Shown: positions 4,949 to 26,323, counted from the stretch's first letter. The stretch is 64,000 bases of DNA from Candidatus Oxydemutatoraceae bacterium (GCA_965220085.1 CBDCOZ010000003.1:896001-960000), one strand, 5' to 3'. Notes: a model not told the origin generated them from the sequence alone. A program made the numbers and translations.

Positions 4949-6223
4949 TTATCGCAACGGGCCTTCCAGGAAGAGGCGCAGCCGCAAGCGCAAGCTGCTG
5001 GGCACAACACGGGCGGCGGCGGAGCAGAGCATCTCGCTGACCGGCATCGCGTGGCTGTCCATGAAACTTACGCAGACCCTTATGTATTGTCCCACCTGTG
5101 CCCGGCCGGGGGTGAATATGGATACGTTGGTGGTGGCGGTGGCGCCGGGGATGGCGGAGTAGTCGCCGTCCTTTGGCGCGCCGGAAGCCGGGGCGGCGGC
5201 CTGTTGCCATTGCCACCTCAGGGTAGTTCGGTCTATGCCGTTGGGTTCGGTTATGCCTGCTGTGACGGTAGACAGCCGGGTTCCCTCGGCGTAGGTCGGG
5301 TTCTGGTCGGTGATGGCCGGGGCTATGGAGGGGCCGCCAGTGGCAGCGACTTGGGCCTCTGCTACCAGACGAATGTTGATAGCCGCCGCCTGGGCGCTGG
5401 TTTTGTTGTCGGTGCCATCGCTGCCATCGTCCACCACATGGAAGTTGAAAGAAGTATAAGTGTCGTCAGGGTCGTCAGGGTCGCTGGGATCCTGGCCCGG
5501 TACCGGGTAATAGGTCAGTTCACCAGCGGCCAGTTGGGCCACAGTTATTTCCATTGTGGGAGCATCGGCGGTAGTCAGGGGTGTGCCATCCAAGGCTATG
5601 GTGCCGCGGAATGGCACGGATTGCACGATGACAGCAGCCAGCATATCTCCATCGGCGGCATCGGTAAACGGAAAGTCGGTTGCCTTAAATATGTATGGAT
5701 TGGCGGCATTGGCGTTGACATTCACCGTGAGCGGATTTGTGAGCAAACTTACTGCCTCTGGCTTGTCATTGATGTTGGCCACAGCGGTGGCTATCTGCAG
5801 GCATCGCATCTCCGAGTTGGGGGTGGCGGCCATATCCATGAACGATGCGCAGACCTGCAGAAACTTGCCCACCTCATCATCGCCCGGAGTGAAAGCGGCA
5901 TTGGTCGCATCGGTGATGTCGGTGTAAGTACCGCCATTGGTGTCGGCCGCGCTCCACTGCCAACTGAAAGTGCCCAGGCCATCGGCATCGTCTATGGCGG
6001 TGTTCCCGCTGCCGCCGTTGGCGGTGATGACGGAGTCTTCAGTGGGAACGTTTATGCCGCTGGCGTAGGTAACCCCCGGCATGCCGGTGGCATTGCTCTG
6101 CGCTTGAGCCTGAGCGGATACGATGAAAAGCGCGAGCAACAAGAGCGACCGGAGGCCGCACCCGCTTAACTCAATGCGGAGGGGGGGGGGGGGGGGGGGG
6201 GGGGGGAACTTAGGCACGAACAT
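4949..6223 (-). CDS. Secreted Ig/cadherin-like repeat protein 1 with C-terminal LRLRLRLFLEGPLR tag
   Basis: ATG 6223, poly-Pro from a C26 tract, signal peptide ending AQAQAQ; repeats WQW...FTPG..VG.(F/Y).(Q/R)VC.SF.D and NPY.F...DFPF.D.DGD.L; ends LRLRLRLFLEGPLR. Confidence 0.8.
   Translation of the reverse strand: MFVPKFPPPPPPPPLRIELSGCGLRSLLLLALFIVSAQAQAQSNATGMPGVTYASGINVPTEDSVITANGGSGNTAIDDADGLGTFSWQWSAADTNGGTYTDITDATNAAFTPGDDEVGKFLQVCASFMDMAATPNSEMRCLQIATAVANINDKPEAVSLLTNPLTVNVNANAANPYIFKATDFPFTDAADGDMLAAVIVQSVPFRGTIALDGTPLTTADAPTMEITVAQLAAGELTYYPVPGQDPSDPDDPDDTYTSFNFHVVDDGSDGTDNKTSAQAAAINIRLVAEAQVAATGGPSIAPAITDQNPTYAEGTRLSTVTAGITEPNGIDRTTLRWQWQQAAAPASGAPKDGDYSAIPGATATTNVSIFTPGRAQVGQYIRVCVSFMDSHAMPVSEMLCSAAARVVPSSLRLRLRLFLEGPLR
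6181..6206 (-). repeat. Homopolymer G26 (C26 on coding strand) in the 5' coding region of tagged protein 1
   Basis: 26 consecutive G read directly; encodes F-P8-L in frame. Confidence 0.9.
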
Positions 6224-6269
6224 TATCAAATACTCTCATGAAGCGCATTATCAAGTGCGGGTTTTATGA

Positions 6270-7244
6270 TCACTTCTCGGCGGCGGGCATTGCCAGACAT
6301 TTGCGCACCGACTGTTCGACTTTCAAGGTGGGCTGCCAGCCGAGCATGCGTTGCGCTTTGCCGACATCGGGGATGCGCACCCGCACATCGTCGTCGTACG
6401 ATTTGGTCGTCGCAAATTGCAACGGCGGCGTGTTGTCGGGAAGCAGTTTGAGGTCTATGGCGGTCTCGTGAATCAGGTTTGCCAATTGTTTCATGCTGAT
6501 CGGTTGCGGGTTGCCGAGGTTAAATGTGCCGTTTTGCGCCGTTTCGGCAAACGAGTGTTGCGCGATTCCCCGCGCCACATCGCCGATCCATGTGAAGCAA
6601 CGAATTTGTTCGCCGTCTCCGATCAGCGGCAGCGTCGGCTGCTTGTCCGTGACGATGGCCTTGATGAAGTCGGCGAACACATGGCTGATGCCTTGCTCGT
6701 CTTCGCCTTTTTCATGCGGCGTGATGATATTGAACGGACGCCAGATGTAATATTTCATGTCGTATTGTTTGGCAAACGCGCGCGCCAAGCGTTCGCCGGT
6801 GAGTTTGCTCAAGCCGTATTCGGTCGCCGGAATTAACGACTCATCGGCATCTTCCTCCTTGCTGGGATGGGTTTGGCAACGCTCATAAACCATGGAAGAA
6901 CTGATATATGCGATGTGCCGGACTTGCTTGCGATGCATTGCCCACAGTATGTTTTGCATCAGGGTGATATCTTTGGCCAAGATGTCCGCCGGATATTTGT
7001 GGAACCCTCCGACGCCATAAATGAGCGCGGCGGCTTGCACTACGCCGTCGACATCACACATCAATTCGTCGCAAAACCCGGCGTCGGTCAAATCGCCGCA
7101 AATGAATTCGTAGTCGCGCGCGCGATCAATTTTTCCGTAGCGGGCAAAATTATCGACGCCCTTGATGTCGTGGCCTTGTTGTTGCAGCAACGGTATCACC
7201 CATTGCATCAGGGACCCTTCGCTGCCCGTAACCAGTAGCTTCAT
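6270..7244 (-). CDS. NAD-dependent nucleotide-sugar epimerase/dehydratase (extended SDR)
   Basis: VTGSEGSL Rossmann start, SSSMVY, YGLSK catalytic motif, RPFN, GDGEQIRCFTW. Confidence 0.88.
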   Translation of the reverse strand: MKLLVTGSEGSLMQWVIPLLQQQGHDIKGVDNFARYGKIDRARDYEFICGDLTDAGFCDELMCDVDGVVQAAALIYGVGGFHKYPADILAKDITLMQNILWAMHRKQVRHIAYISSSMVYERCQTHPSKEEDADESLIPATEYGLSKLTGERLARAFAKQYDMKYYIWRPFNIITPHEKGEDEQGISHVFADFIKAIVTDKQPTLPLIGDGEQIRCFTWIGDVARGIAQHSFAETAQNGTFNLGNPQPISMKQLANLIHETAIDLKLLPDNTPPLQFATTKSYDDDVRVRIPDVGKAQRMLGWQPTLKVEQSVRKCLAMPAAEK

Positions 7245-7280
7245 CGTTTTCCTCCGTGTTGTGAGAACATAGGCGCAAGC

Positions 7281-8075
7281 TCAGACCGTTGTCTCATAGC
7301 GGTCGTTGTCTTCCAGAATCGCCTTGAACAGTCGCGCATCAAGGCCCAGCCTTTCGCACAGCTTTGCCAGAGCGACGGTATCTTTGGGCAGGCAGGCGCC
7401 GCCGAATCCGCGCAGGTTCTCGTTGCAATCCAGATATTTGTCAAAGATGTGGTTGCGCCGCACCATCGCGTCTTTGATAACGGAGTAGTTGATATCAAGT
7501 TGCCGGCAGATCTCATAGAAATTATTGGCAAAGGTAATTAACATCGCGTTGTATGCATTGTTGAAGTATTTCGCCAGTTCCGCTTCGGTCGGGCTCATGC
7601 GGCAAAACGCATGCGGGAAATGTCCGTGCGATGCCTTGATCAATTCATAGTCTTCGTCGGAGTCGGTGCCGATGATGCAGAGGTCGTGATTGTCGGTGAA
7701 ATCGGCGATGGCGACGCGCTCGCGCAAGAACTCGGGCACATGGGCGATACGGGCTTGCGGGTATCGTTTTTGCAACTTGGCAACCGTGCCGGGTTCGATC
7801 GTAGACTTGATCACGATAACGCCCGGATAGTCGCGCTGGACCAAATCAGCGACAACGCTCTCGGTGATAGCGGTATCACAGGAGTTGTCGGCGGCGGGCG
7901 GAGTCGGCACGCATAAATATGCCAACTGTGTGTCCAGCACATCGTCTATCGTTGTGTCCAGCGCAATATCGTGCGCCTTGACGGTGTGCCCCAGCTTGCT
8001 CAGTCCGTGGCGCACTGCGCCGCCGACCACCCCGATGCCAATGATGCCGACCCGCATCGTTTGTTGTTGTTTCAT
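7281..8075 (-). CDS. UDP-glucose/GDP-mannose dehydrogenase family protein (short form, no C-terminal domain)
   Basis: GIGVVG, CVPTP, KSTIEPGT, PEFLRE, AELAKYFNN, GFGGACLPKD (catalytic Cys). Confidence 0.85.
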   Translation of the reverse strand: MKQQQTMRVGIIGIGVVGGAVRHGLSKLGHTVKAHDIALDTTIDDVLDTQLAYLCVPTPPAADNSCDTAITESVVADLVQRDYPGVIVIKSTIEPGTVAKLQKRYPQARIAHVPEFLRERVAIADFTDNHDLCIIGTDSDEDYELIKASHGHFPHAFCRMSPTEAELAKYFNNAYNAMLITFANNFYEICRQLDINYSVIKDAMVRRNHIFDKYLDCNENLRGFGGACLPKDTVALAKLCERLGLDARLFKAILEDNDRYETTV

Positions 8076-8200
8076 TGCCAATGCCTTTGGAGAATTAAGA
8101 TGTTCATGCGTAAGTATACCCTAGAATTCCCTAGGATTCGGATTCCAAGCAAAGAGCGACAGAACCCGGCAGCGGAAAGCGGAGCATTTTGAACGATGCT

Positions 8201-8719
8201 TTAGCGCGTATCGGCGGGGCAACCGCGGGCCAACTCAAGCAAGCCGACGATCGCTTGGTACTCGGCTTGGCTGCGCACCGCCTCTCTGTCGCCGCCGAAG
8301 CGAAACACCTCGGCAGCGACGGGCTTGCCGGCGATTGCCCACGCCAGCCAGACGGTGCCGACAGGCTTGTCGCTGCTGCCGCCGTCGGGGCCTGCGATAC
8401 CGCTGACAGCCACGCCGAGATCGGCGCCGGTTGCGGTCAGCACGCCTGTGACCATCTGTTTGACGACTGGCTCGCTGACAGCGCCGAACTCTTGCAAAGA
8501 GCGCTCGCTGACGCCCAGCAGTTCGTGTTTGATACGATTGGAGTATGAAATGACGCCGCCGACATACCACCGCGAGGAGCCGGCAACGCTGCTCAGCAAG
8601 CGTCCTATGCCGCCGCCGGTGCAAGATTCGGCGCTGGCAATACGCAACGATTTCCCTTCGGCCTCGTCGGCCAAAGAGCGAATAGCGGCTAATATCTCCG
8701 CAGTTTTCGGGTTCATCAT
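8201..8719 (-). CDS. pncC: Nicotinamide-nucleotide amidohydrolase (CinA C-terminal/PncC)
   Basis: AESCTGG, YSNRIK, GAVSE, SGIAGPDGG, KPVGTVW; start moved to ATG 8719 after GGGAGG. Confidence 0.88.
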   Translation of the reverse strand: MMNPKTAEILAAIRSLADEAEGKSLRIASAESCTGGGIGRLLSSVAGSSRWYVGGVISYSNRIKHELLGVSERSLQEFGAVSEPVVKQMVTGVLTATGADLGVAVSGIAGPDGGSSDKPVGTVWLAWAIAGKPVAAEVFRFGGDREAVRSQAEYQAIVGLLELARGCPADTR

Positions 8720-8822
8720 GTGCGCCTCCCTATGTGGCCTCCCGGTCATGATATTACGCCACACTTTGACCCCAAGGGCAAAGTGTTTATAATGTGCCCT
8801 CATTTTTGATGAGGGCTTCTAC

Positions 8823-9638
8823 ATGGTTGTAATACGACTAGCGTGCGGCGGTTCCCGTAAGCGTCCGTTCTATAACATCGTTGTCACCGACTCGCGGCGA
8901 CCGCGCGACAGCGGCTATCTTGAGCGCATCGGCTATTTTAATCCGCGCGCGACGGATGAGGAAACATATATTGAACTGAATCGCGAGAGGATGGATTACT
9001 GGGTCGGCCAAGGCGCCAAGATTTCCGATCGCGTCAGCACATTGAGCAAGCGAGCCGCCAAGCCGCGCGACGAACAAAAGCCGCAAAAGAGCGCGACAGT
9101 GCGCAAACCGAAACAAGCGACGCACGATGAAATAATCGATGTGGTCGCCAAGAAAGCGGTGGTGGCCGAGCAACAGAGCGCTGCCGCCGCAGACAAGTCC
9201 GCCGCGCCGAAGAACGTTGCCGGCGCAGACAAGCCCGCCGCGCCGAAGAGCGTTGCCGGCGAAGCCAAGCCCGCCGCGCCGAAGAGCGTTGCCGGCGAAG
9301 ACAAGCCCGCCGCGCCGAAGAGCGTTGCCGGCGAAGCCAAGCCCGCCGCGCCGAAGAGCGTTGCCGGCGAAGCCAAGCCCGCCGCGCCGAAGAGCGCTGC
9401 CGGCGCAGCCAAGCCCGCCGCACCGAAGAGCGTTGCCGGCGCAGACAAGCCCGCCGCGCCGAAGAGCGTTGCCGGCGAAGCCAAGCCCGCCGCGCCGAAG
9501 AGCGTTGCCGGCGAAGCCAAGCCCGCCGCGCCGAAGAGCGTTGCCGGCGCAGACAAGCCCGGCACAGCACAAGCCGATGATACGACCCCGGACAAGCAAG
9601 GCGCCGACGCTGCCGCCGCCGAGAAGTCAGACGCCTGA
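8823..9638 (+). CDS. rpsP: 30S ribosomal protein S16 with long repetitive C-terminal extension
   Basis: MVVIRLACGGSRKRPFYNIVVTDSRRPRD...ERIGYFNP...WVGQGAKISDRV; first gene of rpsP-rimM-trmD-rplS. Confidence 0.95.
   Translation: MVVIRLACGGSRKRPFYNIVVTDSRRPRDSGYLERIGYFNPRATDEETYIELNRERMDYWVGQGAKISDRVSTLSKRAAKPRDEQKPQKSATVRKPKQATHDEIIDVVAKKAVVAEQQSAAAADKSAAPKNVAGADKPAAPKSVAGEAKPAAPKSVAGEDKPAAPKSVAGEAKPAAPKSVAGEAKPAAPKSAAGAAKPAAPKSVAGADKPAAPKSVAGEAKPAAPKSVAGEAKPAAPKSVAGADKPGTAQADDTTPDKQGADAAAAEKSDA
9189..9560 (+). repeat. 36-bp coding tandem repeat, about 10 copies ((A/D)KPAAPKSVAG(E/A))
   Basis: GAC codon at 9192 recurs at 9228 and at 9552 (10 x 36 bp). Confidence 0.95.
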
Positions 9639-9678
9639 TCCTTCTCCCGCCTGTCGGTGTGCCGACAATTCCCGAACC

Positions 9679-11282: not shown

Positions 11283-11308
11283 AAGAGCCGTCCGAATCAA
11301 TGCTCGGC

Positions 11309-11382: not shown

Positions 11383-11396
11383 ATCCCGTCTCCCCG

Positions 11397-12926: not shown

Positions 12927-13473
12927 GCGCGCGCTATCGCAACGGCCCTTCGAGGAAGAGACGCAAGCGCTCCGCCAAGTGGCAAGCGCCAATCGATAGT
13001 TTGCCGTCATAGCCGCGCTGTCACACCGCGCGGATTCAATGCAGTGCGCCGCGCCATATTGCTTTGCCGAGTCGGCAATGCAGGCAATCAAGTTGCGCGC
13101 GCTATCGCAACGGTCCTTCGAGGAAGAGACGCAAGCGCTCCGCCAAGTGGCAAGCGCCAATCGATAGTTTGCCGTCATAGCCGCGCTGTCACACCGCGCG
13201 GATTCAATGCAGTGCGCCGCGCCATATTGCTTTGCCGAGTCGGCAATGCGGGCAATCAAGTTGCGCGCGCTATCGCAACGGTCCTTCGAGGAAGAGACGC
13301 AAGCGCTCCGCCAAGTGGCAAGCGCCAATCGATAGTTTGCCGTCATAGCCGCGCTGTCACACCGCGCGGATTCAATGCAGTGCGCCGCGCCATATTGCTT
13401 TGCCGAGTCGGCAATGCAGGCAATCAAGCTGTACGCGCTATCGTAGCGGTCCTTCGAGGAAGAGACGCAAGCG
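12927..13473 (-). repeat. 168-bp tandem repeat (3 full copies plus the gene's own 3' end), each carrying the tag-coding 3' end ...ERLRLFLEGPLR*
   Basis: GCGCTATCG anchors at 12931, 13099, 13267 and 13435; each full unit holds a TTGCCGA-G-TCGGCAA inverted repeat. Confidence 0.93.
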
Positions 13474-15021
13474 CAAGCGCAGGCGCTCCACCAGGTTGAT
13501 GGTCATGGTGCACTCTTCGCTGTCTGCGCTGCCGGTGCCATCGATTACTCTGAAGGGGAAAGTGGCAAAGTTGGGGGTGACATCGTGGTTGCCCTCCGGG
13601 GGGTAATAGGTGAGCCGCGGTACTGAGCTCGTCGGGATTCTGGTGCCTCTGCTGATGGGCCTGGACCCGCCCTCAAGGTGCAAGGTGCCCTTGTCGGGGG
13701 CGGCTATGTTCAAGATGGCCAGTTTGTCGCCATCCTCGTCCATGAACGGGAAGTCGGAGACCTTGAAAAAGTATGGATTGGTCGCGGTTGCGGCGATGGA
13801 TACATTCACAGAGGCATCGGCGCAGGTAGGGGCGAAGTTGATATCGTTGACGCGGGTGGCGACGGAGCACAGCGGGCCCTCCACAGTCTCCGCCGTGGGG
13901 TGGCGGTCCCTGAAACTGGCGCAGACGCGGATGTACAGATTCACATGGGCTTGCCGGGGGGTGAATCTGTCCCCGCTCGCGCCGCTGATGGCGGCAAAGG
14001 GGTCATTGCCGGAGACGGATGACTGCCACTCCCACCTCAGGGTGTCGGCGTCTATGCCGTTGGGTTCGGTTATGCCTCTGGTGCTGGCGATCAGTTCGGT
14101 ATTCTGGTCGTAGGGAGTTCCGACGACGGAGTATGGCGTGGGGTTGCCGCTGGCGGCCACCTGGACGCTGCTGTCTGTTATGTTTATCGTCAGGGTGGCG
14201 GCATCGGCAGCTTCGTCGGCACGGCTGGAGCGCCCGCCATCATCCCGCACCCTGTATGTGAATGTGGCATAGCCTGCGCCGACGGTGGGGTTGGCATCCG
14301 GATAATATGCCAGAGAATCCACCTGGGTGATATTCAGAAAATTGTTGGCACGGACACATCTGGAGTTGGCAGTGCAATCAGTGCTGGGGGGCAAGCCATC
14401 CACCACCAATGTCAGAGTGCCGCGCGCGGGCGCCGACACTACGTAGATGCCATTGAGGGCATGGCCGTCCTCATCGGAAAAGGGGAAATCCGCTCGCGTG
14501 AACAGATAGGGGTCGGCGGAGCTGGCGATGTCCGGCACATTGACGTTGCTGTCGCCGCCGACGGGCCGGTCGATCACATTCACCACGGTGCCGATGCCCC
14601 GGCACCGGGTCTCGCTGTTGCCGGCGTCATCGTCAAAGGTGGCACAGACGCGGAGGAACTGGCCGACATGGACTTGCAGGGGTGTGAAGGTGGAAGCGGT
14701 GGCTCCGGCTATGGCGGAGTAGTCGCCGGCCGCCGGCGCGCCGGAGGCCGGGGCAACGGCCTGTTGCCAGGCCCAGGTGGGGGTGAATGTGGCGATGCCA
14801 TCGGGGTCGGTTATGCTGCCCTTAGTGGCGGTCAGCTGGCTGTCCTCATTGGGCCCTATACCGGGCCCTATCGCGGACTCCGACAGCATGGTCAGGTCGG
14901 TGCCGTCCGCCGCCGTCACCGCCGGCGCGCCGGTGGCGGGGCTGTTGGTCTGCGCCTGCAACTGACCGCATATGACAACAAGGGCGAGCAGGGCCAGCGG
15001 CAAGAGGCTAAGCCGCACCAT
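13438..15021 (-). CDS. Secreted Ig/cadherin-like repeat protein 2 with C-terminal LRLRLRLFLEGPLR tag (true start may be 15100, out of frame at a C tract)
   Basis: Signal peptide ...LLALVVICGQLQAQ; same two alternating repeat types as protein 1; ends LRLRLRLFLEGPLR. Confidence 0.8.
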   Translation of the reverse strand: MVRLSLLPLALLALVVICGQLQAQTNSPATGAPAVTAADGTDLTMLSESAIGPGIGPNEDSQLTATKGSITDPDGIATFTPTWAWQQAVAPASGAPAAGDYSAIAGATASTFTPLQVHVGQFLRVCATFDDDAGNSETRCRGIGTVVNVIDRPVGGDSNVNVPDIASSADPYLFTRADFPFSDEDGHALNGIYVVSAPARGTLTLVVDGLPPSTDCTANSRCVRANNFLNITQVDSLAYYPDANPTVGAGYATFTYRVRDDGGRSSRADEAADAATLTINITDSSVQVAASGNPTPYSVVGTPYDQNTELIASTRGITEPNGIDADTLRWEWQSSVSGNDPFAAISGASGDRFTPRQAHVNLYIRVCASFRDRHPTAETVEGPLCSVATRVNDINFAPTCADASVNVSIAATATNPYFFKVSDFPFMDEDGDKLAILNIAAPDKGTLHLEGGSRPISRGTRIPTSSVPRLTYYPPEGNHDVTPNFATFPFRVIDGTGSADSEECTMTINLVERLRLRLRLFLEGPLR

Positions 15022-15038: not shown

Positions 15039-15063
15039 GGGGAGGGGGGGGGGGTAGGGGGGG
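15039..15063 (-). repeat. Interrupted G tract (G4-A-G11-TA-G7) between the strong RBS/ATG at 15100 and the body of tagged protein 2
   Basis: Read directly; AAAGGAG precedes ATG 15100. Confidence 0.85.
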
Positions 15064-15606
15064 TATTATAGACTTGTTTCTTCATAGTATTTCTCATCAT
15101 GGTATGTATCTCCTTTTCCGGTAAATGCAGTTGTGCAATGCGTACTACGCTATAAATAATCCACAAACAACTGAGTGTTGTTTGTGCTCCACAAACTGTT
15201 CATTGTTTCCCTCATTTAGCGTACTCTGCCACAAAATGCAGTCCTTTGCAAGCGTCGGTATCTCCTTCTGTCTAGCGAACGAATGCCGTACTATACCACA
15301 AAGTGCGAGTTATCCGCAATACCTTCAGGATTCTGTCTCACCCCTTGCACACCCTAGCATTTCCTTTCCCCGCTATGGCGGACGAACACTATTTATGCGG
15401 GGCATGGCGGTACGGCGGTATTGCTCGCCGCTCGCCCGAAAATGACGATGACACAGCGCTATTTCACAACGGCTCCCGTTGTCGCTCAAGCGGAATCCGC
15501 TATGTCCCGCCTTGAGATGTCCGGGTTTTGACATCAACCGCGCAGTTACTATAATGGCGCAATGAACAGAAAACGACATGACTGTTTCCAATCCTCACGG
15601 AGTGCG

Positions 15607-15751: not shown

Positions 15752-17296
15752 ATGGCAGCGGAAAAGAAATTGATTATATTTGATACGACATTGCGCGACG
15801 GCGAACAAAGTCCGGGCGCGTCAATGACCGAAGACGAAAAGGTGCGCATTGCAAAAGCGTTGGAAAAACTCGGCGCGGACGTGATAGAAGCCGGGTTTCC
15901 GGTCGCGAGTCCGGGGGATTTCAATGCGGTCGCGGCGGTCGCGGCGACCATCAACGACAGCATCGTATGCGGGCTTGCGCGCGCGCTGGACAAAGACATT
16001 GAGCAGGCCGCCGCCGCGCTGAAACCGGCGCGCGCCAAGCGCATTCACACTTTCATCGCAGCGTCTCCGATGCACATGGAGAAAAAGTTGCGGATGACGC
16101 CGCAACAGGTGCTTGAGCGGGCCGAAGCCGCGGTGCGCTTGGCGCGCAAGCACACCGACGATGTCGAGTTTTCGCCCGAAGACGCGGGGCGCTCCGAGGT
16201 CGATTTCCTGTGTCGTCTGATCGAGCGCGTCATCAAAGCCGGCGCGACGACGATCAACATCCCGGATACCGTGGGCTACAGCATGCCCGGTCAATTCGGC
16301 GAGTTAATCGCAACCCTGATCGCACAGGTGCCGAACTCCGACAAGGCCGTTTTCTCGGTGCACTGTCATAACGACTTGGGCCTTGCGGTGGCGAACTCTC
16401 TCAGCGCTGTCATGCGCGGCGCCGGACAGGTCGAGTGCACGATCAACGGCCTTGGCGAGCGCGCCGGCAATGCCGCGCTGGAGGAGATCGTCATGACGAT
16501 CAAAACACGGCCGGACATTTTTGACTGCGATGTCGCAATCGACACCACGCGGATTGTTCCGACCTCAAGGCTGGTATCGAGCATTACCGGATTTCCGGTG
16601 CAACCGAATAAGGCGATTGTCGGCGCCAACGCTTTTGCCCACGAGTCGGGCATACACCAGGACGGCGTGCTGAAGTTCCGGCAGACGTATGAGATCATGC
16701 GCGCCGAGGATGTCGGCTGGAAAGAGAACCGCATCGTGTTGGGCAAACATTCCGGACGCAATGCGTTTCAAGCGCGTCTGCGCGAACTCGGCGCGGAATT
16801 CAAGAGCGACGAGGAATTGGCGCGCGGGTTTGATGCGTTCAAGCGCCTTGCCGACAAGAAAGATGAAATCTACGACGAGGATTTGCAAGCCTTGGTGTCG
16901 GAGAGCGACAGTTTCAATCAGGACGAATTCTATCGCTTGTTGTCGCTGCATGTGGCGGCGGCAACCGATGCGACGCCCGATGCCGAGGTGTGTCTTGAAG
17001 TGGACGGCGCGCAAAAGACCGCGAATGCCAAAGGCGGCGGAGTGGTCGATGCCGCGTTCAAGGCGATCGAGACGGTCGTCGACAGCGGCGCCGAGTTGTT
17101 GCTCTATTCGGTGAACAACATCACTACCGGAACCGACTCGCAAGGCGAGGTGACGGTGCGCCTATCTCTAAACGGGCGCGTGGTAAACGGTCTGGGGGCG
17201 GACACCGATATTGTGATTGCCTCCAGCAAAGCCTATGTCAGCGCGTTGAACAAGTTGCATTGCAAAGCCGCCGTGGCGCAGCGCGAAGGGGTTTAG
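15752..17296 (+). CDS. leuA: 2-isopropylmalate synthase
   Basis: [43 protein letters not shown], regulatory C-terminal domain. Confidence 0.97.
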
Positions 17297-17299
17297 CGA

Positions 17300-18037
17300 A
17301 TGCCCGACGGATTGCACTCGATGGATAAAAAGAAACTCGCTTGTCTGGAAGGCATGGGGATAGATGTGTATGTGCCGCGCGGCGCGAAGGCGGAGGATGC
17401 GGCAGACGAATCCGCTGTGAGCGCGCGACAAGCCGCGGCGGATCCCGCCGCCGCGGATGCAGCATCGAATGCCAACAGTTGGAACCTGTTGCAACAGGAG
17501 GTGCGCTCCTGCGCCAAGTGCGCCGAACTCGCATCCGCGCGAACGCAAACGGTGTTCGGGGTCGGCGATGTCAACGCCGAGTGGATGCTGATCGGCGAAG
17601 CGCCCGGCATGGAAGAAGATCGCCGCGGCGAACCTTTTGTCGGGCGCGCGGGGAAATTGCTGGACAAGATGCTGCTTGCCATCGGGCTTGACCGCAGTAC
17701 CGTTTATATCGCCAACATACTCAAGTGCAGGCCGCCGGAGAACCGCAACCCGCGGCCGGAGGAAGCGGAGAATTGCAGCGGCTACCTGCGGCGGCAAATC
17801 GCATTGGTAAAGCCGAAGATCATTCTCGCGCTGGGAGGCGTCGCGGCCTCCGCGCTGTTGGATGCGCAGACACCGGTAGGGCGGTTGCGCGGGCAAGAGC
17901 ACCGCTTGCCGGGCGGCGATATTCCGCTGGTCGTTACCTATCATCCGGCATATTTGCTGCGCTCGCCGAATCAAAAACGCGCGGCATGGGATGATTTGCA
18001 GTTTGCGTGTCGCGTAGCCGGGAGGGAATTGCCGTGA
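17300..18037 (+). CDS. Uracil-DNA glycosylase family 4
   Basis: CAKCAEL Fe-S Cys, IGEAPG, PFVGRAGKLL, KCRPPENRNP, TYHPAYLLR. Confidence 0.93.
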   Translation: MPDGLHSMDKKKLACLEGMGIDVYVPRGAKAEDAADESAVSARQAAADPAAADAASNANSWNLLQQEVRSCAKCAELASARTQTVFGVGDVNAEWMLIGEAPGMEEDRRGEPFVGRAGKLLDKMLLAIGLDRSTVYIANILKCRPPENRNPRPEEAENCSGYLRRQIALVKPKIILALGGVAASALLDAQTPVGRLRGQEHRLPGGDIPLVVTYHPAYLLRSPNQKRAAWDDLQFACRVAGRELP

Positions 18038-18470
18038 GCGCGGTTTTGCAATCAGAGTTGTTGGAGTTCCGGCGCATGGGCATTGACGATACGGATGCGG
18101 TACGCCAAATTGCTGCCTATCATCCGGCATATTTGCTGCGCTCGCCGAATCAAAAACGCGCGGCATGGGATGATTTGCAGTTTGCGTGTCGCGTAGCCGG
18201 GAGGGAATTGCCGTGAGCGCGGTTTTGCAATCAGAGTTGTTGGAGTTCCGGCGCATGGGCATTGGCGATGCGGATGCGGTACGCCAAATTGCTGCCTATC
18301 ATCCGGCATATTTGCTGCGCTCGCCGAATCAAAAACGCGCGGCATGGGATGATTTGCAGTTTGCGTGTCGCGTAGCCGGGAGGGAATTGCCGTGAGCGCG
18401 GTTTTGCAATCAGAGTTGTTGGAGTTCCGGCGCATGGGCATTGGCGATGCGGATGCGGCGCACCAAATTG
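17937..18470 (+). repeat. 179-bp tandem triplication of the udg/rimI junction, creating two 60-aa chimeric ORFs (18034-18216, 18213-18395)
   Basis: CCTATCATCCGG at 17937, 18116 and 18295; copies differ by a few substitutions. Confidence 0.93.
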
Positions 18471-18856: not shown

Positions 18857-18871
18857 TAGCGGCGCTTGGTC

Positions 18872-19651: not shown

Positions 19652-19653
19652 AC

Positions 19654-19844: not shown

Positions 19845-19918
19845 GCATCCTGCGCCGAATTGAGCGTTGCGCAACATTGTGCTATGATGACCGCATTGAT
19901 TCGTTGGGAGTATTTGAT

Positions 19919-20581
19919 ATGACTGCTATGACTGCCATGACCGCGCCACAACGCCTGCTTCGCTGGCTTGTTGTCGCCTGCATTGTGGGTGCGCTGGCGC
20001 TGGCGTTGCCGGTAGTTTGGGATCTCATAGCGCCGGCCGGCGCCGCCACGCCGAGCGCACAGCAAGCCTCCGGAGCGGGCGCAACACAAGCGGGCGCACA
20101 GGCCGGCCTGAGCCTCTGGCAGGCGCTGTCCATAATGGGAGCCGGTTTTGCCTTGATTATGAGCGCCCTCGTGGGCACATGGATATGGCTAGATGCCAGA
20201 CTTGAACGCATGGAAGCCAGGTTTGACGACAGGTTCAAGGAAGCGGATGCCAAGGCGGATGCCAGATTTGAGCGCATGGAAGACAAGCTTGAACGCATGG
20301 AAGCCAAGTTTGACGACAGGTTCAAGGAAGTGGATGCCAGATTTGAACGCATGGAAGCCAAATTTGACGACAAGTTCAAGGAAGTGGATGCCAGGTTTGA
20401 ACGCATGGAAGCCAAATTTAACGACAGGTTCAAGGAAGTGGATGCCAGATTTGAGCGCATGGAAGCCAAGTTTGAGCGCATGGATGACAAGTTGAATGCC
20501 ATCATCATGCATCTGGCAGGTGTCAAGCGGGGCGGCGATACGCTGCGCCTTCAGGATCAACGCCCCGATGAAGCGTTGTAA
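19919..20581 (+). CDS. Membrane-anchored coiled-coil repeat protein, copy 1
   Basis: GGGAG RBS; two hydrophobic segments, then 18-aa repeats ARFERMEAKF(D/N)DRFKEVD. Confidence 0.75.
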   Translation: MTAMTAMTAPQRLLRWLVVACIVGALALALPVVWDLIAPAGAATPSAQQASGAGATQAGAQAGLSLWQALSIMGAGFALIMSALVGTWIWLDARLERMEARFDDRFKEADAKADARFERMEDKLERMEAKFDDRFKEVDARFERMEAKFDDKFKEVDARFERMEAKFNDRFKEVDARFERMEAKFERMDDKLNAIIMHLAGVKRGGDTLRLQDQRPDEAL

Positions 20582-20658
20582 TGAGACGAAAGGCGGAGTG
20601 GCCAAGACACTTGCAAACTGCTAGCCAATTTATACGGGCCGCCGCCAGAAGGGATGCC

Positions 20659-21342
20659 ATGAGCCGACAATTTTTAATATCTCTCCCCTATGCGCATTCA
20701 TTTTTGCGGCAGGTTTGCGCGGCGCTAATACTCGCTTGCGCCTTCGCCGCGGACAGCGCCCAAGCGCAGACCGAATGCCCCGAAGGGCAAACGCGCCTCA
20801 CGAAAGTAATTGGCGTTGGCGTTGCCGATGATACCGGTTGCGTTGCCGATGACGCGGCGGAGAATTCTGCGGGATGTGAGGGCAAGGGCGGGCCATATTC
20901 GCATAGCCGGTTTGATGACCGGTTTAACTTCGCTATCGGCGTCCGTCGTGGTAACGGTCGCTGCCGAGTTCTTTGTGAAGTTGGTGATGCAAGTTTTCCC
21001 GCCAAGATAGAGCAAGCGCTCGCCGACAACGGCTCCGAGTTCTGCGGCGCGTTTGATCGCTGCCTGCAAGAGCAAGGTATCCGCCACTGCCACACGTATC
21101 CGAAATGCCCGAAGATGAATGCGCTCAAGGAACGCTTTAACCGCGCGCTTCAGGAAGAATCTGCGGAGTTTGAAGAGGGCTTGTTGCGGACCGATATACG
21201 GGAATTCAATAATCGTCGGATAAAGTATCTGCTATGGTTTAATACCCAACGACCACACTATGGGCTGGAACTTCAAGCGTCTATGACGCCCACAATATTT
21301 GCTCAAGTTTCCAATATGTCATGGCATCCTGCGCCGAATTGA
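20659..21342 (+). pseudogene. Chimeric ORF: signal peptide of a secreted protein fused to a degenerate IS transposase C-terminus
   Basis: N-terminus ...ALILACAFAADSAQAQ; C-terminal part DNGSEF...HTYPKCPKMNALKERFNR...WFNTQRPH. Confidence 0.7.
20890..21300 (+). mobile_element. IS481/IS3-like (rve integrase core) transposase remnant
   Basis: DNGSEF, P..N...ERFNR, (Y/F)N..RPH motifs of DDE integrase cores; left boundary approximate; more decayed copies at about 23396-23500 and 26395-26465. Confidence 0.75.
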
Positions 21343-22129
21343 GCGTTGCGCAACATTGTGCTATGATGACCGCATTGATTCGTTGGGAGTATTTGATATG
21401 ACTGCTATGACTGCCATGACCGCGCCACAACACCTGCTTCGCTGGCTTGTTGTCGCCTGCATTGTGGGTGCGCTGGCGCTGGCGTTGCCGGTAGTTTGGG
21501 ATCTCATAGCGCCGGCCGGCGCCGCCACGCCGAGCGCACAGCAAGCCTCCGGAGCGGGCGCAACACAAGCGGCCGCACAGACCGGCCTGAGCCTCTGGCA
21601 GGCGCTGTCCATAATGGGAGCCGGTTTTGCCTTGATTATGAGCGCCCTCGTGGGCACATGGATATGGCTAGATGCCAGATTTGGACGCATGGAAGCCAGG
21701 TTTGACGACAGGTTCAAGGAAGCGGATGCCAAGGCGGATGCCAGATTTGAGCGCATGGAAGACAAGCTTGAACGCATGGAAGCCAAGTTTGACGACAGGT
21801 TCAAGGAAGTGGATGCCAGGTTTGAACGCATGGAAGCCAAATTTAACGACAGGTTCAAGGAAGTGGAAGCCAAGTTTGAGCGCATGGATGACAAGTTGAA
21901 TGCCATCATCATGCATCTGGCAGGTGTCAAGCAAGGTGGCGATACGCTGCGCCTTCAGGATCAACGCCCCGATGAAGCGTTGTAATGAGACGAAAGGCGG
22001 AGTGGCCAAGACACTTGCAAACTGCTAGCCAATTTATACGGGCCGCCGCCAGAAGGAATGCCATGAGCCGACAATTTTTAATACCCCTCCCCTATGCGCA
22101 TTCATTTTTGCGGCAGGTTTGCGCGGCGC
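21317..22129 (+). repeat. Direct duplication of about 19838-20725 (coiled-coil gene and start of the next gene)
   Basis: Near-identical from TGTCATGGCATCCTGCGCCGAATTG (offset 1479 at the left end); differs by a few SNPs and 75 nt of coiled-coil repeats. Confidence 0.93.
21398..21985 (+). CDS. Membrane-anchored coiled-coil repeat protein, copy 2 (25 aa shorter)
   Basis: Paralog of 19919-20581 with fewer repeats. Confidence 0.75.
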   Translation: MTAMTAMTAPQHLLRWLVVACIVGALALALPVVWDLIAPAGAATPSAQQASGAGATQAAAQTGLSLWQALSIMGAGFALIMSALVGTWIWLDARFGRMEARFDDRFKEADAKADARFERMEDKLERMEAKFDDRFKEVDARFERMEAKFNDRFKEVEAKFERMDDKLNAIIMHLAGVKQGGDTLRLQDQRPDEAL

Positions 22130-22135
22130 CAGAGC

Positions 22136-22364
22136 TCGCTTGCGCCACATTTGCCGACAACTGATTGCGCACGGCATGTCCGAAACAACGCCGGCCGCAT
22201 TGGTGGTCCGCGGAACATTGCCGGCTCAGCGCGTTTTGAAGGGGCAGGTATCCGACATCCATGCGTTGACCAAAGACAGCGGGATTACCCCTCCGACATT
22301 GCTGATTGTCGGAGAAGTGGTCGGACTGCGAGACAGTTTGCGGTGGTATCAGCCCGACGACTGA
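22136..22364 (+). pseudogene. Diverged duplicate of the cobA 3' end
   Basis: RLRHICRQLIAHGMSETTPAALVVRGTLP...LRDSLRWYQPDD matches 19423-19651 with scattered substitutions. Confidence 0.9.
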
Positions 22365-22558
22365 ACGAATCATGCCGGAAACATTGCGGACTGCCGGCAG
22401 CAGCGCGAGTTGTCATGAGCGATGCCGGAAACATTCCGGACTGCCGGCATCAGCGCGAGTTGCCGCCATAGCAACACATCGGCTCGGCATCATCCGCGCT
22501 TAAATCCAAGGGCAAGGGCCGTTGCGGGTTTCTAAGTTTTAGCTCAGCCCATCGTGTT

Positions 22559-23070
22559 TTAACGATAAATTTTTCCGCGATGACAGATGGCGCGAATGGT
22601 GACAATTTTATCTTCATGGTTAATGGCGCAAAGAATGCGGTAAGCGCTGACGCGCAAACGTCTCTGCCCATAAGACCGTATCTCAAAGGTTTGCCATAAG
22701 AAAGCGGAGCGCGCATCAGCCGCGTTTCAATAGCGCGTTTAATCAATTTTGCGGCGCTCCCGGGCAGGGCGGGCATGTCATCTGTGACAACTTTTTGCGC
22801 ATACTCAGCCTGATAAGCCGTCCGGCAGACAGGCAGGCGCGGGCTCTGCCGCCAAGCGTCCTTGTGCGCGATGCGCCGGCCCGTATCTTCGCTGATGCGG
22901 CGATTGCTGAGGTCGGACAGCAGGCGGTCTTCTTGCAGTTCCGGAGCTTCGCGAATGAGGCTTGCCGCCAGCGCAGAAACGGGCAACCGACGTCCCTCGG
23001 CAAGTTTCGCCAACTCGCTGCCGGTTTCGGCATCCAATGTGATCCGTATTTGTGAATTTGGATTTGACAT
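22559..23070 (-). pseudogene. Degenerate type II toxin-antitoxin module: RHH/CopG-like antitoxin read through into a frameshifted RelE/StbE-like toxin
   Basis: AAGGA RBS, MSNPNSQIRITLD...ALAASLIREA...AHKDAW; then IKRAIETRL...YGKPLRYGL, 1-nt shift near 22670, RRLRVSAYRI...IRAICHRGKIYR*. Confidence 0.75.
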
Positions 23071-23593
23071 GTTTTCCTTTTCGCTTGCTTTGCGGGCAAG
23101 TCCATCGCCTCTCATGCGACAAGGCAAATGCGCGGGCATCAAGCCTTGCGGGGCGCCGCAGGGAGAACCTCTCCGCCCCAAGCAAAACATGAATCATGCC
23201 AGAAACACGAACGGCAGGAAGCGGAGCCGGGCCTGCGTTTGCGCCTTTTCCTTGAAGCCCCCCGCAATCATGCGAGCGCCCTGCGACGGAGAAAGGGAGT
23301 ATTATGGGGCGCGCGCAAGGAAGGCAGTGGGTCTGGCTTCCCAGGTTTTGCCTTTTGGTCATTATGGGGCGCGCGCAAGGAAGGCAGGGATACGCATGAA
23401 TGCATTCAATGAACGCTTATCGCCTATTCGGGAAGGATTCGCGGAGTTTGAAGCGGGTTTGTTGATGACGACCTGCGGACATTTAATGGTTGTCTGGTAG
23501 ACTATGCCTGTTATGGCGAATCATACCGGAAACATTTCGGACTGTCGGCATCAGCACGAGCTGTTGCAATATCAACACAGGAGGATTAGATCT

Positions 23594-26323
23594 GTGAATA
23601 TTGTCAATCCCATCACTGAGTTTGCCGGGCGCGGTCTCTGGCTATTGGCATTGTCGGCTCTGCTGGCATCGCTCGCCCTGAGCGCTCCGGCTCAGGCCCA
23701 GAACCAGCCCGCCACCGGCATGCCCGGCATCCAATACGAAACGGGCATAACGCGCCCCACCGATGATTCCAGGATATTCGGCACCATGGGCACCATGGCC
23801 GATGAAGATGGCCTCACCATAAGCAACATAGACAGAGACATGACCTGGCGATGGAGCGTGGCCGACACGCACAACGGCACCTACACCGCCCATCCCAACA
23901 CCACCTCACCATTCCGGATGCGGCGCTTCATCCCCGCAGATGCCGATGTGGGCAAGTTTCTGCAGGTCTGCGCATCCTTCAGGGACGATGCCGGCAACAA
24001 CGAGGAGCTATGCAGGCGGATAAGCATGAGTGTGCTGGATGTGGACGACCCGGCCCAAGTGGGAGGGGCACATGAGGGCTTCATAGAAGTGTTTGTGACC
24101 GCGACTGCCGCCAAACCCTACGTCTTCAATGAGGACGATTTGGTATTCATTGATAACGACGGTGACACTGTGACAGGCTTCCGCATAATCACTCTTCCCA
24201 GCGCTGGCACCCTCAGGCTCAACGGTATGCCCACAGGGGGATCCTGTGAGGATCCATTTGTGGAAGTATCCAGGGCCAATATAGGCACCCTCACCTATTT
24301 TCCGGCGGCGGGTCAATCGCCAACCAAGAGCGGCTCATATGCCTTTTTCGCCGTTCAGGCGCTTAGCAGCGGGGCCGATTACAACGACCCTTGCATAATG
24401 CATAACCATACCCTGAATCAAATCTCGATAAGATTGGTTACAGACCCCGACTCCGCCACCGGCGAGCCCGCGGTCACATATGCAAGCGGCATAAATGCCC
24501 CCACTGAGGATAGCCCCATCACCGCCAATCAAGGCAGCATAATGGATACCAACAATGACCCGCCCACCGCTCTGGGCGACATCAGATGGCAATGGAGCCA
24601 GGCGGATGGGCGCGACGGCGCCTATGCCGACATAACCGGCGCAACCGATGCCGCATTCACCCCGGGCGATAATCAGGTCGGCAAGTTCCTGCGGGTCTGC
24701 GCATCGTTCACCGACGAAGACGACAACGACGAGGAGCGATGCCTGCGGATAGAGGATGCGGTTGTCAATATCAATGATGACCCCACCGGCGCCGTCAGCA
24801 TCGGCGGCATCGGCGGTAGCATTGTGAGCGAGCACGAGGAGCTCAGCGTAGCCGGCAACATTGACGATGCCGATGGCTTCGACCCAGCGAATGTAACGTA
24901 TCAATGGCAGCAGGTCGCCAGCCCCTCGACGCCCACCGCCGATGCGGCCTGGGCCGACATCGCGGGCGCCGAGTCACGGACATTCGCTTCGGACCACGCC
25001 CAGGTGGGGCATCATCTGCGCGCCTGTGTGCTGTACACCGACAATCAGGGCACCGCCGAACGGGTGTGCAGCGGGTCCATCGGGCCCATCGTCAATGCGA
25101 ACGATGCGCCGGTTGCCGCCGCCGCCACCGTGTCGGTGTCCGTCGCTGCCAGCGCCGAGGACCCCTATCGCTTCAGCGTCTCGGACTTTCGATTCGACGA
25201 TGAGGATGGGGACGCTCTTGAGAGCGTAACTTTTGTGTCCCTCCCCGCTGTCGGCGGCCTGCTGGTGGGCGAGAGCGCCGCCGACATCGGTCAGATGGTG
25301 AACCGGGCCGACATTCCCACCATCGGCTACTATCCGGCGGACAACCAGAGCCCCAACCCCAACTATGCCAGTTTCAGATTCAACGTGACCGACGATGGCG
25401 ACGGCCCCGGCGGCGACGACACCGATGCCGCCCGCACCAGTAACGCTGCCACCATCACCATCAGCCTGGTATCCGCCGAGCCGATGCCTGCCACCGGTAA
25501 TCCTGCCATAACCGGCGGCCCGGCGCGACAGGGCGCGGCGCTGAGCGCCGGGCTCGGCACAGTGAAAGATGTCAACGGCATAGACACCGACACCATAATG
25601 TGGCGGTGGCAGGCCGTCAGCCCCTCAACATCCACCGGCACCGAGGAATGGGACGACATACCGGGCGCGACCAATGACGCATTTACTCCGGGACAGGCCC
25701 AGGTGGGCATGCATCTGCGCGTCTGCATCAGATTCATGGACAACCACAGCGCCCCCGCCAACGAGGGCCCGCTGTGCTCCGCCGCCACTGACCCGGTTGT
25801 CAATGTCAACGATGCCCCGGTGGCGACGGATGACACATACACAGTCGATATAGCGCCGGGCACTCCGTTGCTCACAGACTTCCGGTTCATAATCCCCCCT
25901 CAGGCCTTTCGGGCTGCCTACGACGATGCGGACGGCGATCGGCTGGCATCGGTCACCATCACCAAACTGCCGCCCGGCGAGCACGGCGGCCTGCTCGAAG
26001 GGTCAGATCCCGCTGGCACCATGAATACTCAGATCTTAGCCGACTCCAACAACGCACCCATCCGCCCCGCTGTGTTTCGGGTATCTGAGGACGGCGAGCA
26101 GTTTGTGGATGATGACGGCAGACCCCGCTTTCTCCATTTCTCCGCCAGCCTGTTGTTCCTCTCCAGCGAAGCCGGGTTCGTCACCGATGAAACCACTTTC
26201 AAATTCACCCTCAGCGATGGCGCCCTGAGCAGCAACGAGGCCACCCTGACCATCAGACTGGTGACTCTCCAATCTGGTTTGCGCTTGCGGTTGCGCCTGT
26301 TCTTGGAAGGCCCGTTGCGATAA
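23594..26323 (+). CDS. Secreted Ig/cadherin-like repeat protein 3 with C-terminal LRLRLRLFLEGPLR tag
   Basis: GGAGG RBS, GTG 23594, signal peptide ...LALSAPAQAQ; about 7 repeat domains of the same two types; ends GLRLRLRLFLEGPLR. Confidence 0.85.
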   Translation: MNIVNPITEFAGRGLWLLALSALLASLALSAPAQAQNQPATGMPGIQYETGITRPTDDSRIFGTMGTMADEDGLTISNIDRDMTWRWSVADTHNGTYTAHPNTTSPFRMRRFIPADADVGKFLQVCASFRDDAGNNEELCRRISMSVLDVDDPAQVGGAHEGFIEVFVTATAAKPYVFNEDDLVFIDNDGDTVTGFRIITLPSAGTLRLNGMPTGGSCEDPFVEVSRANIGTLTYFPAAGQSPTKSGSYAFFAVQALSSGADYNDPCIMHNHTLNQISIRLVTDPDSATGEPAVTYASGINAPTEDSPITANQGSIMDTNNDPPTALGDIRWQWSQADGRDGAYADITGATDAAFTPGDNQVGKFLRVCASFTDEDDNDEERCLRIEDAVVNINDDPTGAVSIGGIGGSIVSEHEELSVAGNIDDADGFDPANVTYQWQQVASPSTPTADAAWADIAGAESRTFASDHAQVGHHLRACVLYTDNQGTAERVCSGSIGPIVNANDAPVAAAATVSVSVAASAEDPYRFSVSDFRFDDEDGDALESVTFVSLPAVGGLLVGESAADIGQMVNRADIPTIGYYPADNQSPNPNYASFRFNVTDDGDGPGGDDTDAARTSNAATITISLVSAEPMPATGNPAITGGPARQGAALSAGLGTVKDVNGIDTDTIMWRWQAVSPSTSTGTEEWDDIPGATNDAFTPGQAQVGMHLRVCIRFMDNHSAPANEGPLCSAATDPVVNVNDAPVATDDTYTVDIAPGTPLLTDFRFIIPPQAFRAAYDDADGDRLASVTITKLPPGEHGGLLEGSDPAGTMNTQILADSNNAPIRPAVFRVSEDGEQFVDDDGRPRFLHFSASLLFLSSEAGFVTDETTFKFTLSDGALSSNEATLTIRLVTLQSGLRLRLRLFLEGPLR

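Follow-up and report, generated by a model that had tools for sequence, protein, structure and literature searches.

A C-terminal tag shared by more than 200 adhesin-like genes of a Candidatus Oxydemutatoraceae bacterium and its putative strand-less X-module-dockerin-like acceptor

The window analysed here, a stretch of 64,000 nucleotides, belongs to an uncultured Candidatus Oxydemutatoraceae bacterium (GCA_965220085.1, CBDCOZ010000003.1:896001-960000). The terms G000 for its genome (a 2.49-Mb assembly in three contigs), G001 to G018 for relatives of the same family, g2, g3, g5 and g6 for genera and C1 and C3 for contigs of G000 were used throughout the paper. The basis of the whole analysis is computation. 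Three genes of the window encode secreted proteins with a common C-terminal tag of 14 residues, which is probably the detached first strand of an anchoring domain whose remainder is encoded as a separate secreted acceptor. Features are summarized in Table 1. The initial annotation had reported the 14-residue tail directly before the stop of three proteins with Sec-type leaders, and open reading frames and translations confirmed it. All three leaders end in AQAQ/QLQAQ. Using Pfam, weak bacterial immunoglobulin (Ig) and cadherin-like domains were the only matches for the three proteins, with no family found for gene 1. The frame of gene 3 is open already from an ATG at 23504 (939 aa); the GTG at 23594, with GGAGGA just before it, is most likely the start. 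The three tag copies first noted are all real, but the count was too low, as three truncated copies and one decayed relic were also found in the window. Between the tags of gene 1 and gene 2, 7 of the 14 codons (1, 4, 5, 6, 9, 11 and 13) differ in our own reading of the DNA alignment, each of them synonymously, exactly as described before. Gene 1 has 26 consecutive C in its leader, likely a slippage-prone on/off tract of the cargo family. The leader of gene 2 contains an interrupted C tract, and its upstream ATG lies one base out of frame with the signal peptide. The same out-of-frame position of the upstream ATG was observed for many cargo family members, the frame-shifted leader (IDKFLILPPPP..) being a signature of on/off slippage.

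Table 1. Coordinates of the features discussed, given for the window (plain numbers) or for contigs C1 and C3 of G000.
Feature	Position	Strand	Remarks
Cargo gene 1, 426 aa	4949..6229	-	open reading frame and translation: Sec leader after poly-Pro stretch, adhesin-like body, C-terminal tag
Tag copy 1, LRLRLRLFLEGPLR	4952..4993	-	stop 4949-4951
Run of 26 C	6181..6206	-	between gene 1 start and signal peptide, read as poly-Pro
Tandem array, 168 bp	12927..13474		3.3 copies, 97% matches; duplicate of gene 2 3' end with tag and stop
Truncated tag copies ..AERLRLFLEGPLR-stop in the array	13270-13308, 13102-13140, 12934-12972	-	three copies
Cargo gene 2, 527 aa	13438..15021	-	Sec leader, Ig/cadherin-like domains (weak Big_9, Cadherin_5), C-terminal tag
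Tag copy 2, LRLRLRLFLEGPLR	13441..13482	-	gene 2 C-terminus
Interrupted C tract, gene 2 leader	15040-15085	-	upstream ATG 15083-15085
Decayed tag relic LRLRLFLEAPRN	23233..23268	+	no stop behind, upstream of gene 3
Cargo gene 3, 909 aa from GTG 23594	23594..26323	+	Sec leader, Ig/cadherin-like domains, C-terminal tag
Tag copy 3, LRLRLRLFLEGPLR	26279..26320	+	stop 26321-26323
N-terminal-tag paralogs	C1:23868-25292, C1:36358-38001, C3 frame with tag at 1171566		leader motif NPMTVPQDVLT[IV]AQA..
Complete gsp operon	C3:452100-466032		gene names by eye; secretin by PF00263
Acceptor, 322 residues	C3:469169-470137	+	own signal peptide; sole homolog of the cis domain in G000
1369-residue protein ending GGGGGGGGAIALNEVIGLLALLGLVAYGIRRQRRYE	C3:470148-474257		GlyGly-CTERM-like tail: eight Gly, hydrophobic stretch, RRQRRYE; weak choice-of-anchor U match
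Rhombosortase	C3:474930-475607		TIGR03902, 96 bits, cut-off 84
Barrel relic directly behind short tag remnant	C3:1518535-1518790
Ribosomal protein S16, extended	8823-9638
Duplicated stretch of ~180 bases	17168-18441
Paralogous membrane proteins	19877-20581, 21299-21985, C3:476689, C3:525978
Fusion with transposase fragment	20581-21342

The six-frame translation of G000 contains 219 occurrences of FLEG[PA], 214 of them exactly 7 residues ahead of a stop (TAG 135, TAA 51, TGA 28). The reversed-pattern control gave 0 matches in G000, which excludes a chance origin of the copies. A count independent of FLEG[PA], for which all stop-terminated 12-mers with up to 4 mismatches to LRLR[LIV]FLEGPLR were collected, yielded 201 exact copies and, at one, two, three and four mismatches, a further 15, 5, 2 and 2 copies, respectively; in 10 of the 15 one-mismatch tags the mismatch falls in the first two positions. 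In the last 7 codons of the 214 copies, 503 synonymous departures from the majority codon were found versus 1 non-synonymous, a comparison which is circular for the five residues that define the set, and not for L13, R14 and R6. Synonymous variants occur at every codon of the tag across the copies, and random pairs of copies show a mean of 3.75 synonymous codon differences in codons 6 to 14. The residues F8, L9, E10, G11, P12, L13 and R14 are near invariant, with about 10 variant copies in 225. As judged from synonymous variation at every codon, three different stop codons and 201 exact copies, it is the tag peptide, rather than the DNA, that is held constant, which bears out for the genome what had been claimed for two genes of the window. 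Frames of at least 100 residues are closed by 188 of the 214 copies; the other 26 are short remnants. Tag carriers reach about 15,000 residues, and a Sec-type leader was found on all of them.

The tag does not belong to one kind of protein body. At least 8 unrelated contexts precede it, among them Ig ends (..TMTINLVEH), Cys-rich ends and acidic linkers. In the AlphaFold model of gene 2 (35 aligned relatives, mean predicted local distance difference test score (pLDDT) 87.8) the last strand comprises residues 504-511, and the tag at 514-527 is coil, with pLDDT of about 61 falling to 49. Monomer model and varied upstream contexts together rule out that the tag is simply the last strand of the terminal Ig domain. 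Models of sorting signals in NCBIfam did not match the three window proteins or the 44-residue tail at E values up to 1. The tail has 14 residues with Arg at alternate positions, ends at the stop and contains no hydrophobic run, in contrast to the tripartite signals of LPXTG, PEP-CTERM and GlyGly-CTERM proteins. It is far shorter than the ~80-100 residues of a C-terminal domain of the type IX secretion system (T9SS), and no Pfam match of the PF18962 type was obtained on the window proteins. It ends ..GPLR with no barrel domain ahead, unlike a beta-signal of the beta-barrel assembly machinery (BAM). The distinction from described sorting signals and from a mere Ig strand, on which the first interpretation depended, was thus upheld on the window proteins by domain contexts, AlphaFold and the NCBIfam/Pfam searches. 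Five of the 219 copies are not terminal. In three of these, 20 residues separate the signal peptide from the tag, behind which come a GGS linker and a protease-like domain or PPC repeats; the domain behind some N-terminal tags looks by eye like a trypsin-like serine protease, with no Pfam family matched. The N-terminal tags suggest that the strand works from either end, and the three copies with their GGS linkers fit a portable strand and not a C-terminal processing site. No secretion island was found around the N-terminal-tag genes (C1:15-45 kb).

Relatives were surveyed using the pattern F-L-[EQ]-G-[AP]-x-x-stop on 19 genomes of the family, the reversed control giving 0-1 matches per genome. 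Matches numbered 216 in G000, 36 in G007, 26 in G016, 17 each in G011 and G015, 16 in G018, 15 in G002, 13 in G017, 7 in G003 and 6 in G012. Endings differ by lineage: ..GPLR was found in G000 and G011, ..GPLQ in most of g3, ..GALE in G016 and G018, ..GALQ or ..GALN in G003 and ..GPLQ or ..GPLP in G012. In the g2 genomes G006 and G010 the tags have longer ends, e.g., ..RVFLEGAVIP-stop, with 3 to 14 additional residues before the stop. At least four genera share the core FLEG[PA], with even more synonymous change, and on unrelated cargo bodies. An apparent restriction of the tag to G000 had resulted from a pattern with CGN as the last Arg codon (0 of 40 relatives), and was dismissed when a free last codon and a looser core detected the other genera. 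The whole genome of G001, the closest relative, contains no tag. Genomes of g5 and g6 gave no tag with R-x-x-L-[EQ]-G-[AP]-x-x-stop and weak profile matches only. Among public genome contigs 0 matches were obtained, even with the last codon free; the single match in a public metagenome contig (L168) is a frame of 14 codons, antisense to a different gene, which we regard as a chance match. A word-indexed protein search with the tail profile gave the tag in 0 of 53 proteins from outside G000. Searching 1.84 billion protein representatives with a profile of 26 tails yielded 63 proteins at E values up to 0.001; of the 25 new identifiers, 21 came from G000, one was repeat junk, and three were foreign and end ..RLR[LV]FLEGPLQ. 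In the literature text searched, the strings of the tag and of the strand-1 motif described below were not found, LFLEGP matching one unrelated duck proteomics paper.

The sequence to which the tag corresponds was found in G001. By profile search, this genome carries 27 copies of a C-terminal domain of ~260 residues in cis, in frames of 687 to 17,496 residues (loci L029-L147). The domain opens with strand 1, ..ARV[FYV]LQGA[YL].. (e.g., ..RVFLQGAY..), continues with M.T..LP..QPY, VDWVLVELR, LL.DG and HHRNHL, and finishes in two loops resembling those of a dockerin. By position, the tag appears to correspond to strand 1. In terms of G+C content the two genomes differ (63.6% in G001 versus ~58% in G000), and G001 is the all-cis counterpart of the all-split G000. 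The AlphaFold model of the cis domain (pLDDT 86.8, predicted template modelling score 0.88; residues 1-20 including strand 1 at 84-94) was compared with known structures. The best Foldseek matches were the X-module plus type II dockerin of CipA, 4fl4_L and 2b59_B (E ~1.5e-3, for 2b59_B 1.7e-3, probability 1.0), and VIA-align gave 3kcp_A with Z 9.2 (151 residues, 3.7 A) and 5g5d_B with Z 8.6, the next best being 4.1. The predicted structure thus has the two-part fold of an X-module-dockerin (XDoc), an Ig-like X-module packed on a dockerin. The C-terminal third matches dockerins by sequence as well (profile A5 versus PDB dockerins, E 1e-6 to 1e-3), and PF00404 matched 2 of 5 G001 cis domains tested, one of them over the cut-off. 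For the X-like part no Pfam or NCBIfam model was found. According to PMC5141474 and the PDB entries 2b59, 3kcp, 4fl4 and 5g5d, the XDoc of Clostridium thermocellum CipA ties the cellulosome to cohesins at the cell surface. The G001 domain shares the two-part fold and the position at the extreme C-terminus of very large extracellular proteins. It differs from CipA in that the family is Gram-negative, no cohesin was found and the X-like part has no Pfam/NCBIfam model; in G000, furthermore, the domain is split, with strand 1 on the cargo and the remainder on a separate protein whose dockerin loops are degenerate. Proteins from metagenomes carry the same domain in cis, some with the T9SS tail PF18962 (..KVFLQGPY.., ..EIFLEGAY.., ..SVFLEGPLQSGR..). 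The likeness to an xKVFLEG(P/A)Y strand opening a Bacteroidota-type domain, noted in the initial annotation, proved correct, as the same domain stands in cis in G001 and in the PF18962-tailed metagenome proteins. Similar-looking clusters of hypothetical proteins in a protein atlas come most often from Bacteroidota and Ignavibacteriota, which we take as a lead only.

These cis domains also bear on a different idea, namely that the tail is a nascent-chain arrest or termination-slowing peptide which couples the end of translation to export. A stretch of 9 to 12 residues directly before the stop is invariant, is Arg-rich and contains Gly-Pro, and some analogy to SecM and TnaC may be drawn. Nevertheless, the homologous strand is an ordinary structural element in the cis domains and the stop of the g2 tags lies 3 to 14 residues further on, so that we give arrest hardly any credence.

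G000 contains no cis copy of the domain by profile search. The acceptor is a stand-alone gene; in the alignment, the mature end of its product, RSMNTGLSDFIPADDPY.., falls on the residues immediately following strand 1. A separately encoded acceptor without strand 1 had been anticipated; one gene was found in G000 and 16 more in relatives. The stand-alone strand-less genes of the family encode 261-353 residues with own signal peptides. Among 20 homologous frames read, the strand-1 motif is absent from 18 of 18 stand-alone ones and present in both from G001. By profile search, stand-alone acceptors were found in 16 of 19 family genomes and in none of G001, G008 and G014. All 12 tag-holding genomes carry at least one stand-alone acceptor and the three acceptor-less genomes have no tags, counts which are descriptive only and overstated, because the family genomes are kin and not independent. 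G000 holds both halves of the proposed split system, with 201 exact and 15 near-exact strand-1 tags and one strand-less secreted homolog. In genus g3, each of the 5 genes ending ..FLEGPFR-stop is followed within less than 100 nt, on the same strand, by an acceptor gene, and in G002 the two frames overlap; this adjacency has the appearance of a fission footprint, as left when a cis gene breaks into two. Stand-alone acceptors (L176-L204, P0181-P0184) and many cis domains elsewhere end ..N-L-G-x-x-S-x-V-P, and judged by its sequence this tail might be a second docking element. A search for the receptor among genes missing from G001 yielded 183 candidates; 21 were scanned with Pfam (CopB, sulfatase, TraT-like lipoproteins, an RND (resistance-nodulation-division) pump pair, others), none of them convincing. 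The acceptor was not among these candidates because a weak match exists in G001.

The charge of the two partners was also compared. By a rough count, the X-like part of the acceptor has a net charge of ~-25 versus -3 to -8 in eight cis copies, and the trans tags are richer in alternating Arg (xRxRxR) than cis strand 1 (..A-R-V..). The perfect L/R alternation over seven residues and this surplus of Arg would also suit a self-sufficient amphipathic strand, with a Leu face and an Arg face, which sticks to lipopolysaccharide or another anionic surface, or zips cargos together, with no protein receptor involved. However, F8 to R14 are near invariant though Ile, Val or Met is one base away from Leu, which speaks for a specific fit, and the extra Arg can equally be read as steering to the acidic acceptor. 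We consider a receptor-free strand quite improbable.

In order to model the docking, the complex of acceptor residues 32-322 (24-row alignment) and gene 2 residues 396-527, i.e., the last Ig domain plus the tail (35-row alignment), was predicted. The three runs scored 0.81, 0.81 and 0.80, and the best of three controls 0.00. Of 157 solved complexes, 116 attain this score mark, as do 2 of 215 mismatched pairs, a calibration which is only rough since the alignments were our own. At least 75% of contacts are common to the runs, with a partner pLDDT of 80-81. The predicted interface consists, on the partner side, of gene 2 residues 511-524, which is the tag, plus four residues of the Ig domain, and on the acceptor side of 106-113, 133-141, 172-178, 192-199, 210-221 and 236-245, which are the conserved strands. 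The model supports binding of the tag by the acceptor. The earlier suggestion of an amphipathic strand donated to a partner is in line with these predictions, in which the tail is free in the monomer and residues 511-524 are buried among acceptor strands in the complex.

The gene order around the acceptor is gsp operon, two rhodanese-like genes, acceptor, 1369-residue protein and rhombosortase. Judged from its tail, the neighbouring 1369-residue protein, and not the tag, is the expected substrate of the rhombosortase. In Vibrio, GlyGly-CTERM proteins are described (PMC6219818, PMC13393428) as rhombosortase-processed type II substrates retained at the surface. The 1369-residue protein is a candidate anchor because of its GlyGly-CTERM-like tail and the adjoining rhombosortase. 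In G006 and G010 three acceptor genes lie ~5 kb behind GspL, and in G003 the acceptor follows a gene with a similar hydrophobic-plus-Arg tail. G000 has one Omp85 (BamA) and one TolC, and the usher PF00577 gave 0 matches. A HlyD-like gene (C3:368223), considered for type I secretion, was ruled out as it pairs with an RND pump.

The cargo itself seems to descend from a different export route. A comparison of gene 2 with 18 genomes from its family yielded no homolog at an E value of 1e-5 or better; in a large protein collection gene 2 gave 57 matches, 29 from outside G000, and the tag is present in 0 of these 29. Three of the foreign homologs (ENA P0027, P0032, P0039) end in PF03797 autotransporter barrels. 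The window proteins have no PF03797 and G000 none over the family cut-off; the one sub-threshold match is a 449-residue outer-membrane-barrel-like protein ending ..ALTWGF, which we take to be FadL-like. Two barrel relics are retained in G000, one of them directly behind a short tag remnant. Barrel-ended homologs and relics indicate that some of the cargo proteins formerly carried barrels themselves. The likeness to type Va autotransporters is that close homologs of the cargo in ENA assemblies have PF03797 where G000 has the tag; the difference is that the window proteins have no barrel.

The tandem duplications and recombined cargo family members in which G000 is rich could be taken to mean that the tail is a functionless stump of a deleted anchoring domain or barrel, spread and kept uniform by gene conversion among recent paralogs. 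Tag remnant and barrel relic side by side fit such a history. On the other hand, gene conversion would homogenise the DNA, yet pairs of copies differ at the mean of 3.75 synonymous codons given above, and the core is conserved across genera with unrelated cargo bodies and the same cut point everywhere. A stump is therefore very improbable in our view.

An unlikely, though more serious, competitor is a linear export or sorting signal read by an envelope machine such as the GspC PDZ domain, the secretin, BamA or a periplasmic chaperone, the likeness to strand 1 then being ancestry and the acceptor-like proteins doing something else. As the cargo descends from autotransporters that lost the barrel, another outer-membrane route is needed; the gsp operon is complete, GspL was found in 18 of 18 family relatives, and four genomes have acceptors with no detectable tags. 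Nonetheless, no component of a machine tracks the tag, and genomes free of tags have the type II system as well. The tail end varies by genus (Arg, Gln, Glu, Asn, Pro, or 3 to 14 extra residues), which would hardly be expected if the free C-terminus were read, and the tag is N-terminal in three proteins. The exact cut point is explained by the acceptor model and not by a linear signal.

The reading we prefer is carried by positional homology, strand-less acceptors, co-occurrence, adjacent genes and a complex model whose controls were clean, all obtained by computation. On balance we judge it probable that the tail is the detached strand 1 of an XDoc-like anchoring domain and acts in a natural strand-complementation docking of the cargo into one shared adaptor. 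In some relatives the whole XDoc-like domain stands in cis at the ends of giant adhesins; according to this proposal, it would have been split in G000. Strand 1 (x-R-x-R-[LIV]-F-L-E-G-P-L-R) would then end ~200 Sec-exported adhesin-like cargos, and the remainder of the domain would be made once, as the 322-residue secreted acceptor beginning exactly where strand 1 ends. Outside the cytoplasm, the cargo tail would insert into the incomplete Ig-like sandwich of the acceptor and complete the fold, similar to donor-strand complementation in pili. The degenerate-dockerin half of the acceptor, with its ..N-L-G-x-x-S-x-V-P tail, may hold the cargo at the surface or pass it to the type II secretion system, with the 1369-residue GlyGly-CTERM-like neighbour as a putative anchor. 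Binding in vivo, the compartment, the ligand of the acceptor and type II export are what we infer from the computed results.

We are aware of several points which weigh against this proposal, in addition to the rough calibration and the kinship of the genomes mentioned above. The pLDDT of the acceptor in the predicted complex is only 61, and the complex score is the model's own confidence, which may partly reflect recognition of the cis domain. In four genomes (three from g5 and one from g6) stand-alone acceptors occur, yet the patterns used detected no tag; acceptors may therefore have a tag-independent role. The dockerin half of the G000 acceptor is degenerate with no PF00404 match, and G000 has no PF00404 over the cut-off. 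No cohesin was found in G000 either (PF00963 best 14.4 and 11.6 bits versus a cut-off of 24.1), a divergent cohesin being possible. One acceptor gene faces more than 200 cargo genes and would need high abundance or transient action. Finally, the passage of cargo of up to ~15,000 residues across the outer membrane is left without explanation.

Strand complementation by an acceptor has parallels in known systems. In pili, an Ig-like fold without one strand is completed by a strand of another polypeptide with alternating hydrophobic residues; the missing strand is C-terminal, and like subunits polymerise via chaperone and usher. Chaperone-usher and type V pili thus share with the present case the Ig-like fold short of one strand and its completion from outside by such an alternating-hydrophobic strand. 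Here, in contrast, the first strand is missing, many unrelated cargos share one acceptor, and G000 has no usher. SpyTag/SpyCatcher is a man-made split of the CnaB2 Ig-like domain and is covalent (isopeptide bond). It resembles the tag and acceptor in that a short strand-forming tag reconstitutes an Ig-like fold with a separate catcher, whereas the present pair would be natural and, by sequence, non-covalent. GlyGly-CTERM/rhombosortase, LPXTG/sortase and PEP-CTERM/exosortase are many-to-one C-terminal sorting systems (PMC3237569, PMC6219818). They have in common with the tag a short C-terminal element on many unrelated secreted proteins, one partner gene and a link with type II secretion and surface retention, the acceptor gene being placed between the gsp operon and a rhombosortase gene. 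The tag differs in having neither transmembrane helix nor basic tail and no sign of cleavage or transpeptidation, and its partner is a binding domain and not an enzyme.

Some further observations were made in and around the window. Paralogous membrane proteins with FERMEAKFDDRFKEVDAR coiled-coil repeats, two of them in the window, have no match in G001. Another family absent from G001 (MKKPKNLK.., weak CCDC90-like) adjoins many tag-gene clusters by eye. In a listing of sequencing runs, no RNA run with this sequence appeared. Ribosomal protein S16 has a C-terminal extension of ~190 residues, mostly AAPKSVAGEAKP-type repeats. A stretch of ~180 bases is duplicated around uracil-DNA-glycosylase-like and rimI-like genes, the frame MPMRRNSNNSDCKTALTAIPSRL.. 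being present twice. A Sec-leader, Cys-rich family N-terminus is fused to an integrase-core-like (rve-like, by eye) transposase fragment, which is probably a recombination relic.

Taken further, the proposal leads to a proteome-scale tag-and-catcher display, in which a 14-residue strand encoded by over 200 phase-variable adhesin genes (~9% of the gene content of this 2.5-Mb symbiont genome) would complete a single strand-less XDoc-like adaptor of the type II/rhombosortase locus. Such a system would be a Gram-negative counterpart of the cellulosome for adhesins, born by fission of the cis domain and replacing the autotransporter barrel on an entire gene family; we advance this wider view tentatively, our doubts slightly outweighing our confidence. 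If true, it would be the first natural many-to-one protein tag which acts by fold completion and not by enzymatic processing. It would also provide an initial clue to the function of a domain so far without annotation (..VFL[QE]G[AP]Y..LP..QPY..VDWVLVELR..HHRNH..), and the genus dialects (..GPLR, ..GPLQ, ..GALE, ..GAVIP) would be ready-made, possibly orthogonal peptide-adaptor pairs for protein engineering. For the organism itself, it would explain how a small genome can supply a symbiont with switchable surface proteins by the hundred, no anchor or barrel domain being spent on the individual protein; by estimate, 214 domains of ~250 residues would amount to roughly 160 kb.

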